Shown one piece after another: positions 50,161 to 52,537 of a DNA stretch of 64,000 nt. The position numbers and the translations under genes are program-made. The stretch's first letter is position 1; the number at the start of each line of letters is the position of its first letter. Where the stretch lies: the sequence record PQ330092; one strand, 5' to 3'. This DNA is from Escherichia phage JP4. The notes below the pieces were generated by a model, which saw only the letters and a program-made list of their open reading frames with translations, ran no database searches and was not told where the DNA came from.

Positions 50161-50171
50161 TGTGATATAAT
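50161..50171 (+). promoter_or_regulatory. Extended -10 promoter element TGTGATATAAT upstream of ClpA-like gene
   Basis: Exact recurrence of the motif ~40 bp before the start codon. Confidence 0.5.
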
Positions 50172-50211
50172 GTTTATTAATTAGAGTGACGTGAATCACA
50201 TAGGAGAATAC

Positions 50212-52500
50212 ATGAATCTTACTCAATTGTTCAAAAAAAGCGACGAACTGGCAACATCTCTAGGTCATACATTCTTGACTATTGACCACGTAAGTGCCAC
50301 AGTACTGACTATTGATAGCATCAAGAACGTATTTGAAGATATGAACATTGATGCAGACAAACTGCACAACCGCCTGATGAACTATCTTAAAAATACAACA
50401 GTTCCACATGCACCAAAAAGTGTTAAAGATGAAGACGCGAATCGCACTTCACTTCTAGTGAATCGCGTTGTACATGAGCTTTCTAAAAAATCAGTTATTG
50501 AACAACTAAAAAGTGATGATTTTTCGATTGATGCATATTTTGTTCTATTCGAATGTCTGTCTTTCCCTAACACAGCACTAGAAGCTGCGTTAAAAGAAGA
50601 AGGTGTTAGCTGTACTGAAGCTGCACGTGCATTACAGAAACACGTTGAGTTACTTGATAAGGGTATCAACTTACAAAGTATTAATGACGAACCGATTGGA
50701 GATAAAAAAGTGGCCCAACAGCAGCAATCATCTAAACAAAAAGGTTTGGAAGACTATACAACGAATCTAACTGCTCTTGCAAAAGAAGGCAAACTAGATC
50801 CTATGATTGGTCGCCAGAAAGAATTGTCTGCATTGATTGAGACTCTTGCTCGCAAAACCAAAAAGAATGCTATTCTCACTGGTGAAGCTGGTGTAGGTAA
50901 AACACAAATCATCGACGGGCTTGCACAAGCTATTGCTGATGGTAACGTACCTGAACACCTGAAAGACGTTGAAATTCTTTCACTAAATGTTGGTGCATTG
51001 ACTGCTGGTACTAAGTATCGTGGTGAATTTGAAGAACGCATCGACAATTTGCTAAAAGAACTAAAGAAACGTGAAAATACTATTGTTTTCATTGATGAAA
51101 TTCATATTATGGTTGGGGCTGGTTCCGCAAGTAATGGTTCTATGGACATGAGCAATATGCTTAAGCCAGCACTTTCACGTGGTGAGATTCGTGTAATTGG
51201 TGCAACAACATATGATGAATATCGTAAAAATATCGAGAAAGATAGTGCATTAACTCGTCGTTTTATGAAAATTGACGTAGTTGAGCCGACAATTGATGAA
51301 ACTCGTGCAATTGTTAATGGTTTGAAACCAACGTATGAAAAATTCCATAATGTTGAGTTCACATCTGATGCAATGGATGCTGTAATTTCTCTCAGTGATA
51401 AATTCCTGAAGAATAAGCACTTCCCAGATAAAGCAATTGATCTAATGGATGCTGCTGCGGCTAAAGTTCGTTCACGTGACAACAATAGTAAGCTTATTAC
51501 TGCCAATTTGATTCAAGAAGTTGTTGCTGGTATTGCCAATTTGGATATCAACGTGGTTGCATGTACTGAAAGTGATCGTATGCGTAATCTACCAGATGCA
51601 CTACGCTCACGTGTATACGGTCAAGAGGAAGCTATTCAAAAATTAGTTGATAACGTGATGGTAGCTCGTGCAGGACTGCGTGACAAATCTAGTGTTCAGG
51701 GTGCATTTATGTTTGTTGGACCATCTGGTACTGGTAAAACAGAAATTACCAAAGCATTAGCAGACGCAACTGGTGCGGAACTCATTCGCTTTGATATGTC
51801 AGAATTTTCTCAAGAACATACTGTTTCTAAACTAATTGGTTCACCTCCAGGTTATGTTGGTCATGATTCTGGTAACGGTTTACTGTTGGATAAAATTGAG
51901 CAGTTCCCTAATGCAGTACTGTTACTTGATGAAATTGAAAAAGCAGATCGTAAAGTACTACTAACCTTCCTACAGGTTTTGGATGAAGGTCGTCTGACTG
52001 GTTCTCAAGGTAAAACTGTATATTTTAATAACGTAACTGTTATTATGACTACAAACCTTGGTGCGGCTGATTCAACAAAGCGTAGCATTGGTATGAGCGG
52101 TAGTGACACTGCACAGGACAAGGCAATTAAAGCATTCTTGCCACCAGAGTTTATTAACCGTATTGATAGTATCGTTACGTTTAAAGACCTAAGCAGTGAA
52201 GCTATTGACAGCATCATTGATAAGTTCATGGGTGGTTTGAATGAACAAGTCAAAGACCGTAATGTTAAAGTTACATTAACAAAAGCTGCACGTGAATGGC
52301 TTGCGAAAAATGGGGTAAAAGTTGGTATGGGTGCACGTCCAATGAAACGTACCATTGAACAAAACATTCGTGTGCCACTAGCTAAAGAAATGTTGTGTGG
52401 TTCACTTGTGAATGGTGGTAACATTACATTTGATGTTATTGATGGTAAAATCGGTATTAAGCCGAAACGTACCAAAGCTGTAGATAAAGCACTAGTATAA
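50212..52500 (+). CDS. ClpA-like two-domain AAA+ ATPase (Clp/Hsp100 family)
   Basis: D1 Walker A GEAGVGKT, ...[18 protein letters not shown]...[15 protein letters not shown]...[26 protein letters not shown]; D2 [13 protein letters not shown]...RFDMSEF...[17 protein letters not shown]...[11 protein letters not shown]...GARPM; near-collinear with E. coli ClpA; AGGAG SD before ATG 50212. Confidence 0.9.
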
Positions 52501-52537
52501 AAAAAGAAAAGGAGAGCATTATGCTCTCCTTTTTTTA
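52501..52537. terminator. Bidirectional terminator (GGAGAGC-attat-GCTCTCC flanked by A-rich / T8)
   Basis: Palindromic stem between convergent ClpA-like and giant gene. Confidence 0.8.

Follow-up and report, generated by a model that had tools for sequence, protein, structure and literature searches.

The stretch of DNA analysed here, 64,000 nucleotides from Escherichia phage JP4 (sequence record PQ330092; called the window, with positions counted from its first letter), carries a clpA-like gene whose 762-residue product, judged by its conserved motifs, is almost certainly an active ClpA-type unfoldase of AAA+ class I. With modest confidence, we regard this protein as the probable ATPase of a ClpAP(S) protease that the phage itself encodes and would make ahead of the late genes. 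Escherichia phage 121Q (Asteriusvirus) matches the window at 99.8% identity, and its gp581 is 99.9% identical to the window protein.

In the scheme we propose, clpA would be expressed as a single gene, ahead of the late virion genes, from an extended -10 promoter of the sigma-70 type, and ClpA hexamers would use their IGM loops to engage a tetradecameric ClpP encoded by the phage, the homolog of 121Q gp464. Substrates would be taken directly or through a phage ClpS-fold adaptor, the homolog of 121Q gp48, bound to the divergent N-domain, and the ClpAP(S) assembly would degrade selected host or early phage proteins during infection. We infer the physical pairings of ClpA with ClpP and of the ClpA N-domain with ClpS, and a proteolytic rather than a chaperone output; the pairings are supported indirectly by co-occurrence of the genes, by a shared promoter class, and by coupled changes in the docking tripeptide and the ClpP pocket.

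A full-length ClpA-type unfoldase

The 762-residue reading frame runs on the + strand from an ATG at 50212 to a TAA at 52498-52500. An alternative in-frame GTG start at 50191 would yield 769 residues, and is disfavoured because no ribosome-binding site accompanies it and no public annotation uses it. An earlier note on this DNA, made by a model from the letters and their reading frames, had called the product a full-length unfoldase nearly collinear with bacterial ClpA across both AAA+ modules. This description is borne out: phmmer against the E. coli ClpA structure (PDB 1ksf) gives an E-value of 3.5e-180, with query residues 17-741 collinear with residues 20-734 of the chain. Identity to E. 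coli ClpA is ~42% overall; D1 (50%) and D2 (47%) lie above this figure and the N-domain (21.5%) well below it. The Pfam domains found are AAA, AAA_lid_9, AAA_2 and ClpB_D2-small. The best NCBIfam model is that for ClpA, TIGR02639, which is matched over positions 5-732 of 734 and is the only model matched at full length; models for ClpB, ClpV, ClpK and ClpG match in two separate stretches, as expected, because the middle domain is missing. There is no coiled-coil M-domain, the feature that sets ClpB, ClpC and Hsp104 apart from ClpA, the alignment to ClpA containing no indel longer than 10 residues and none longer than two in D1 or D2. The coding sequence and the elements recognized in its product are as follows.

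50212-52500, +: clpA-like coding sequence, 762 residues, equivalent to 121Q gp581; full-length match to PHROG family phrog_4871, 1033 bits
50212-50646, +: N-domain, a divergent double Clp_N repeat, residues 1-145
50536-50583, +: clade signature of the N-domain, 16 residues, 109-124
50647-50745, +: flexible linker between N-domain and D1, residues 146-178; poorly conserved within the clade, predicted local confidence (pLDDT) below 50 at residues 160-180
50746-51546, +: D1 AAA+ module, residues 179-445
50881-50904, +: D1 Walker A, GEAGVGKT
51013-51033, +: D1 pore loop KYR (KYRGE)
51082-51105, +: D1 Walker B, IVFIDEIH
51196-51213, +: D1 sensor-1
51250-51267, +: D1 arginine fingers, RR
51547-52434, +: D2 AAA+ module with D2-small domain, residues 446-741
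51718-51741, +: D2 Walker A, GPSGTGKT
51844-51864, +: D2 pore loop GYVG (PPGYVGH)
51919-51945, +: D2 Walker B (LLLDEIE)
52042-52056, +: D2 sensor-1
52144-52167, +: D2 arginine finger, PEFINRID (NR)
52330-52350, +: D2 sensor-2, GARPMKR

The Walker A and B motifs, the KYR and GYVG pore loops, sensors 1 and 2, and the RR and NR arginine fingers are all intact and align with the corresponding residues of E. coli ClpA; the catalytic motifs are conserved over 114 sequence clusters of the phage clade to which the protein belongs. Loss of Walker or arginine-finger residues, named in the earlier note as the mark of an inactive pseudo-ATPase, was looked for in the alignment, and no motif proved to be lost. 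A pseudo-ATPase or decaying gene might be proposed from the scores to ClpA equivalog models, all of which are below cut-off, but with motifs intact in 114 clusters, a Nei-Gojobori dN/dS of 0.04 overall against Ecwhy_1, and a full-length ClpA reading frame in ~70 phage records, we consider it very improbable.

The N-terminal ~140 residues had been described as a divergent Clp N-domain, and both sequence and predicted structure agree, with a domain of ~145 residues. On residues 11-59, the first repeat, Pfam model Clp_N reaches 24.5 bits, the cut-off being 20.7. Residues 1-180 were modelled with AlphaFold2 from 29 clade sequences (pLDDT 80.9, predicted TM-score (pTM) 0.75); the model shows helical repeats, as expected, with a disordered linker at 160-180. 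The best 50 matches listed in a Foldseek search of this model against the PDB are all Clp/Hsp100 N-domains, and include the ClpA N-domain chains 1k6k and 1r6o_B, the latter from a complex with ClpS (TM-score 0.70, 21% identity). With a dN/dS of 0.07, and H19, D25 and H26 invariant within the clade, the N-domain is divergent yet strongly constrained.

Co-occurring ClpP and ClpS

By tblastn, ClpA, a gp464-type ClpP and a gp48-type ClpS are found in the same ~70 Rak2-like phage records. The span of this co-occurrence takes in Asteriusvirus, Alcyoneusvirus (RaK2, K64-1), the Salmonella phages 7t3 and Munch, Mimasvirus (CBB, GAP32), Eneladusvirus (BF, Erwinia pEa), Yersinia phage fHe-Yen9 and Xanthomonas phage XaC1. 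Within the phage collection searched by tblastn, the gp48-type ClpS occurs only in Rak2-like phages. PA5oct-like phages have both ClpA and ClpP.

In 121Q the peptidase is gp464, a canonical ClpP of full length that shares 34.5% identity with E. coli ClpP; it scores 141 bits to Pfam CLP_protease and 152 bits to TIGR00493, as against 51 bits for a head-maturation relative of ClpP. Its Ser-His-Asp residues align with S97, H122 and D171 of the E. coli enzyme, and the N-terminal axial-loop motif P-x-V-V-E...GER...D...SR is kept; each of the seven phage ClpPs compared has both the triad and this motif. The 121Q protein carries in addition a conserved C-terminal extension of ~20 residues (NE.GKY.VKRRGG.EEWV), which has no counterpart in E. 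coli or PA5oct ClpP. RefSeq labels gp464 "head maturation protease"; 121Q encodes a separate T4 gp21-type prohead protease, gp601, and gp464 is therefore not needed in that role. An E. coli ClpP query of the 121Q genome matches gp464 alone, and a tblastn search of the same genome with E. coli ClpA and ClpX (E no greater than 1e-3), in which HslU was not used as a query, found no Clp-type unfoldase except gp581. Two other 121Q proteins were considered as partners and set aside: gp473, a very divergent ClpP-like protein with a weak ClpP match and an N-terminal segment resembling a signal peptide, and gp475, a weakly HslV-like Ntn hydrolase that begins Met-Thr.

The candidate adaptor, gp48, has 181 residues, is annotated as a ClpS adaptor, and scores 24.7 bits to Pfam model ClpS, for which the cut-off is 23. 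An AlphaFold2 model of the gp48 family (pLDDT 80) superimposes on E. coli ClpS with a root-mean-square deviation of 1.2-1.3 Å and a TM-score of up to 0.91, and the top 36 Foldseek matches of the model in the PDB are all ClpS. An extra beta domain, itself conserved, is present at the N-terminus (residues ~5-64), and a helix at the C-terminus is conserved too.

The putative ClpP-docking loop and the ClpP pocket

A loop in D2 by which a ClpA engages ClpP was located by alignment:

52078-52107, +: ClpP-docking loop; I626-G627-M628, at 52087-52095, aligns with I617-G618-L619 of E. coli ClpA

Where the earlier note had looked for IGF or IGL, the loop is present, has ClpA-like length, and carries I-G-M, its third residue being Met rather than the Leu or Phe of [LIV]-G-[FL]. 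The loop that distinguishes ClpP-binding Hsp100 proteins thus appears, from the alignment, to be retained with a non-canonical sequence. In a set of 115 sequences, comprising the 114 clade clusters and the window protein, the pattern hydrophobic-Gly-x keeps its central Gly in 96, and the commoner tripeptides are IGM and MGM (16 each), IGV (11), LGM and IGA (nine each), LGL (eight) and VGF (six).

The opposite face of the contact has changed as well. At positions that we take, from the ClpP-ADEP and ClpAP literature, to form the docking pocket of E. coli ClpP, the phage ClpP shows the replacements L23M, L48V, F49W, Y60T, F82S, F112L and L114G. Where the third residue of the ClpA tripeptide is Phe (VGF in XaC1, IGF in PA5oct), ClpP position 112 is aromatic; where it is Met (121Q, CBB, 7t3 and the Erwinia phages), position 112 is Leu. 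In RaK2, where the third residue is Val (IGV), ClpP has F112 and Y82, and both sides have changed. This coupled divergence of ClpA tripeptide and ClpP pocket is suggestive, the seven lineages compared not being independent of one another.

The earlier note had raised the possibility that a phage unfoldase redirects host ClpP. With a ClpP and a ClpS in the 121Q genome, that idea is no longer supported as the leading one, and we keep it as a rival. It would have the phage ClpA act on E. coli ClpP in competition with host ClpA and ClpX, re-targeting the peptidase to substrates chosen by the N-domain or an adaptor. The I-G-M loop is close to the IGL of E. coli, an infecting phage meets abundant host ClpP from the outset, and, the phage and E. 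coli ClpP pockets being different, the loop may prefer either one. Mixed use of both peptidases is possible. Yet the phage has its own intact ClpP, complete with axial loops, which co-occurs with ClpA throughout the lineage and shares its promoter class, and the ClpA and ClpX queries turned up no Clp-type ATPase but gp581 that could serve it. We judge the redirection of host ClpP unlikely. Because the phage has both its own ClpP and a ClpS-fold adaptor, a self-contained ClpAPS is the more economical proposal.

A further-reaching form of the self-contained system can be drawn, tentatively, as a possibility we would not count on: an orthogonal ClpAPS in which the IGM-type loop has co-evolved with the phage ClpP pocket and the N-domain is paired with the phage-specific ClpS-fold adaptor, the whole being insulated from host ClpAPS, directed by a non-canonical degron, and used in early or middle infection.

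Transcription and timing

The gene has signals of its own at both ends:

50144-50171, +: promoter; TAGACA at 50144-50149, 16-nt spacer, extended -10 TGTGATATAAT at 50161-50171, with TATAAT at 50166-50171
50202-50206, +: Shine-Dalgarno sequence AGGAG, 5 nt before the ATG
52504-52537, both strands: two-way intrinsic terminator; A-run, stem GGAGAGCAT/ATGCTCTCC, T-run
48608-50113, -: upstream neighbour, divergent from clpA
52538-62539, -: downstream neighbour, 3333 residues, convergent with clpA

The promoter is of the sigma-70 extended -10 type and agrees with consensus at 11 of 12 positions, with the TG extension in addition. A generic scan of the region for sigma-70 promoters showed no enrichment (12 found, 13.8 expected), and the promoter assignment therefore rests on membership in a specific class and on conservation of that class. 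The pattern nnGACA-N12-15-TGnTAnAAT is confined to one strand of the 121Q genome: 31 copies lie on the + strand, none on the -, and shuffled sequence predicts ~1.5. Its members lie upstream of genes of replication and nucleotide metabolism and of the late sigma factor gp591; they include sites before ssb, primase, exonuclease, topoisomerase, the gp563 ATPase, the DprA-ThyA block and the DNA polymerase region. The clpA promoter (TAGACA-N13-TGATATAAT) and one directly upstream of clpP (TGGACA-N13-TGATATAAT) belong to this same class, while clpS lies in an operon with IF3 whose promoter is a canonical TTGACA-17-TATAAT. At the corresponding position RaK2 also has an extended -10 element (TTGACA-18-TATAAT with TG), as does CBB (GGAACG...TGTGCTATAAT). 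The authors of the CBB genome paper described a "divergent RpoD-like" promoter class with -35 element TGAAACG, tied to DNA-synthesis genes and a gp55-like sigma gene (PMC5259590); the CBB clpA promoter resembles that class in sequence.

Copies of the (G/T)(G/A)GACA(A)-N13-TGATATAAT form are found in the window at 10818, 14419, 26761, 29830 and 50163, all on the + strand. The T4 late-promoter octamer TATAAATA has no copy on either strand of the window, where shuffled sequence predicts ~10, and just 17 copies in the entire 348-kb 121Q genome; the full octamer appears to be avoided. The CBB authors proposed ATAAATA as a late motif.

At the other end, the hairpin at 52507-52533 has a folding energy of -20 kcal/mol on the + strand (z -7.0) and -16.9 on the - strand (z -5.0), and no shuffled sequence does as well. 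It is kept in RaK2 and CBB with compensatory changes in the stem, and the public annotation of phage G17 already marks a terminator at the 3' site of clpA. Because a GC-rich hairpin stands between an A-run and a T-run, it should be able to terminate both clpA on the + strand and the convergent 3333-residue gene on the - strand. The promoter element and bidirectional terminator that the earlier note had predicted are thus both upheld, together with its view of clpA as a separate transcription unit inside a block of virion genes. Its placing of the gene between convergent minus-strand blocks needs amendment: both flanking genes are on the minus strand, but only the downstream one converges on clpA, the upstream one being divergent.

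These signals suggest that clpA is a monocistronic unit, most likely made before the flanking late virion genes. We infer early or middle expression because the promoter class is that of replication genes; such timing would explain why clpA lies on the strand opposite to the surrounding late virion genes.

Location among structural genes offers a different interpretation, in which ClpA would act independently of ClpP as a chaperone or translocase that unfolds, holds or remodels very large tail or baseplate proteins, the 3333-residue protein for example. The position of clpA is strictly conserved in 121Q, RaK2 and CBB, following genes for a NUDIX protein, a gp15-like tail-completion protein and a structural protein, and adjoining a gene for a protein of ~3300 residues; the upstream part of this order recurs on a metagenomic contig encoding a 45%-identical protein. 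In PA5oct, clpA has dnaJ on one side and a 6.7-kb structural gene on the other; some lineages show a relaxed docking tripeptide; and Iyer et al. listed ClpA, ClpX, ClpS and ClpP among jumbo-phage proteins, speculating that they act as translocases or in assembly (PMC7824862). In these phages, however, the order of genes is largely frozen, so synteny is weak evidence for such a role. The strand of clpA is opposite to that of its neighbours and its promoter is of the replication class rather than late, the ClpP-docking loop, which ClpB-type disaggregases lack, appears to be retained, and the phage encodes a matching ClpP and ClpS. We consider an assembly role quite unlikely.

Published virion proteomics bears on the location of the protein. 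By mass spectrometry of CBB virions, CBB_233, CBB_234, CBB_236 and CBB_237 were detected, whereas CBB_235, the ClpA, was not (PMC5259590); CBB_236, counterpart of the 3333-residue protein, was represented by 21 peptides. In the PA5oct ESI-MS/MS data ClpP is flagged as detected and ClpA is unflagged. Because it was undetected in both sets of virion data, ClpA is probably not a structural protein, and ClpA as a virion component is not supported, missing as it is from the CBB list though the products of both flanking genes are present.

Points that weigh against a phage ClpAPS

Several observations count against the proposed phage ClpAP(S) protease and its synthesis ahead of the late genes. The protein does not reach the cut-offs of the NCBIfam equivalog models for ClpA (753.5 against 993.15 for TIGR02639, and 655 against 1350 for NF008263), and is therefore filed as ClpA-like rather than as a ClpA equivalog. 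The third docking residue, Met here, varies within the clade among M, V, A, L, F and G, and 19 of the 115 sequences, mostly from the Salmonella-phage group, have no central Gly (MSM or MNM); docking to ClpP is therefore not guaranteed in every lineage. In gp48 the N-degron pocket is altered, D35 being kept alongside the changes D36P, M40A and possibly H66N, and K84, which we take to be a ClpA-contact residue of ClpS, is Phe. The altered pocket and the change at K84 make classical N-end-rule delivery doubtful.

The clpP and clpS genes lie outside the window, their presence being deduced from 121Q and ~20 near-identical Asteriusvirus genomes, and clpA, clpP and clpS are dispersed over the genome rather than gathered in an operon. 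The timing of expression is deduced solely from the promoter class. Peptides of ClpP occur in virion preparations of CBB (one peptide) and PA5oct, and could point to a head-associated role of ClpP unrelated to ClpA. Literature searches on phage ClpA, ClpS and ClpP in jumbo phages and on PA5oct omics returned only annotations and speculation, and no functional study.

An old phage lineage

A homology search returned ~114 clusters at 54% identity or above, many of them on ~350-kb contigs, after which scores drop from 845 to 652 bits. At the drop stands a 45%-identical protein (P0115) on a metagenomic phage contig with the same upstream order of genes (NUDIX, T4-gp15-like, structural gene). In an exhaustive search of 1.84 billion representatives, three proteins came closer than the rest (53%, 49% and 45% identity), beyond which ClpA proteins level off at 40-42%. 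That search, with cluster look-up, yielded mostly metagenomic proteins and identified no donor lineage. In a neighbor-joining tree, the Rak2-like ClpAs fall together in a clade supported by 100% of 200 bootstrap replicates, with E. coli ClpA grouping elsewhere and distantly; the same tree gave no support to PA5oct ClpA as sister of this clade. All Rak2-like jumbo myoviruses carry a ClpA of this clade. On the alternatives raised in the earlier note, grouping with host ClpA or ClpC or with a phage-specific clade, the answer is the latter.

The gene has a GC content of 38.6% and a GC at third codon positions (GC3) of 25.7%, the latter phage-like. For a recent host-derived insertion or an assembly contaminant, which the earlier note had flagged as a hazard, nothing speaks beyond the cellular origin of the family. 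Identity to E. coli ClpA is 42-43%, the base composition and the fully supported phage clade point the other way, and synteny, promoter and terminator are conserved in phages whose ClpAs are 62-75% identical to that of the window. A recent host origin is on these grounds in effect ruled out, its probability being negligible, and ClpA is an old phage-resident lineage.

Comparison with known systems

The closest cellular comparison is E. coli ClpA with its ClpAP and ClpS complexes (PDB 1KSF, 6W1Z, 1R6O). Both proteins have the order N-domain-D1-D2, no M-domain, the same catalytic motifs, the same N-domain fold, and a putative docking loop of the form I-G-x at the same place, and the phage partners have ClpP and ClpS folds. 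The phage protein differs in its level of identity, lowest in the N-domain, in having IGM for IGL, and in scoring below equivalog cut-offs; phage ClpP differs from that of E. coli in its remodelled docking pocket and its C-terminal extension; phage ClpS has a folded N-terminal beta domain in place of a short flexible extension, and an altered N-degron pocket; and the phage genes are scattered through a viral genome.

Among jumbo-phage ClpAs (121Q gp581, PBECO4, RaK2 ORF069, GAP32 and CBB_235; phrog_4871), nothing separates the window protein from the Asteriusvirus copies, and the RaK2 and CBB genes match that of the window in synteny, promoter type and terminator. PA5oct gp298 and Atu_ph07 gp292 are more distant, the PA5oct protein having 41% identity, an IGF tripeptide and a dnaJ neighbour. 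In PA5oct and MIJ3 a dnaJ-like gene immediately precedes clpA and a 6.7-kb structural gene follows it; in Atu_ph07 the genes for ClpA (gp292) and DnaJ (gp293) are adjacent (PMC6102473). Linkage of ClpA with a J-protein thus recurs outside the Rak2-like group. Bacillus subtilis phage SPO1 also intervenes in Clp proteolysis during host takeover, through Gp53, an adaptor-like protein that acts on ClpCP (PMC6873191). Unlike the system proposed here, SPO1 supplies only a small adaptor-like protein for the host ClpC, whereas the present phage would bring the unfoldase itself and, elsewhere in its genome, a peptidase and an adaptor.

The gene is not a new discovery. A megablast search with 50000-52700 found 45 phage records with at least 80% query coverage, 20 of them at least 99% identical, led by 121Q, SP27, PBECO4, G17, slurp01 and phAPEC6 (Asteriusvirus; Rak2-like jumbo myoviruses of ~350 kb). 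In 121Q, gp581 is annotated as "ClpA-like" or "ATP-dependent protease", among neighbours annotated as a gp15-like tail-completion protein, virion structural proteins and a gp6-like baseplate wedge; ClpA-like annotations are already present in 121Q, PBECO4, G17, slurp01 and others. There is a PHROG family, and conservation of ClpA in Rak2-like phages has been noted (PMC6102473). With annotations and published discussion in place beforehand, the gene has little novelty. What is added here is a system-level view: the ClpA, ClpP and ClpS components, the promoter class shared by clpA and clpP, and the remodelled docking elements.

Other features of the window

The 3333-residue virion protein (52538-62539, - strand) has no Pfam match in its first or last 1000 residues; its gene stands beside clpA in RaK2 and CBB too, and the start annotated in 121Q gives 3323 residues. 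A second AAA-like ATPase in the window, of 441 residues (26939-28264, + strand), corresponds to the 121Q "ATPase" gp563 and has a borderline Pfam AAA match of 21.3 bits; the promoter of its gene is a perfect TTGACA-16-TATAAT plus the TG extension. Across 35232-43278 (- strand) the window is not collinear with 121Q. The long tail fibre there has 2129 residues, compared with 1841 in 121Q (gp571), and the 2.1-kb "colanic acid-degrading" gene of 121Q, gp573, is replaced by a 201-residue reading frame at 42673-43278, a difference that looks like a swap of host-range modules.

Significance

The value of the finding lies in a testable, system-level hypothesis rather than in discovery of a gene. The phage group grows on E. 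coli, whose ClpAPS is among the best-understood proteolytic machines, and the phage and host versions can therefore be compared directly. Phage-encoded unfoldases are among the least studied of takeover functions. An orthogonal phage ClpAPS, if that possibility proves true, would destroy host proteins, such as defence or housekeeping factors, or would time the removal of early phage proteins. A virus with its own ATPase, peptidase and adaptor could select the proteins to be degraded independently of host regulation, which would bear on how phages counter defences, how the host proteome is recycled and how the infection programme is timed.

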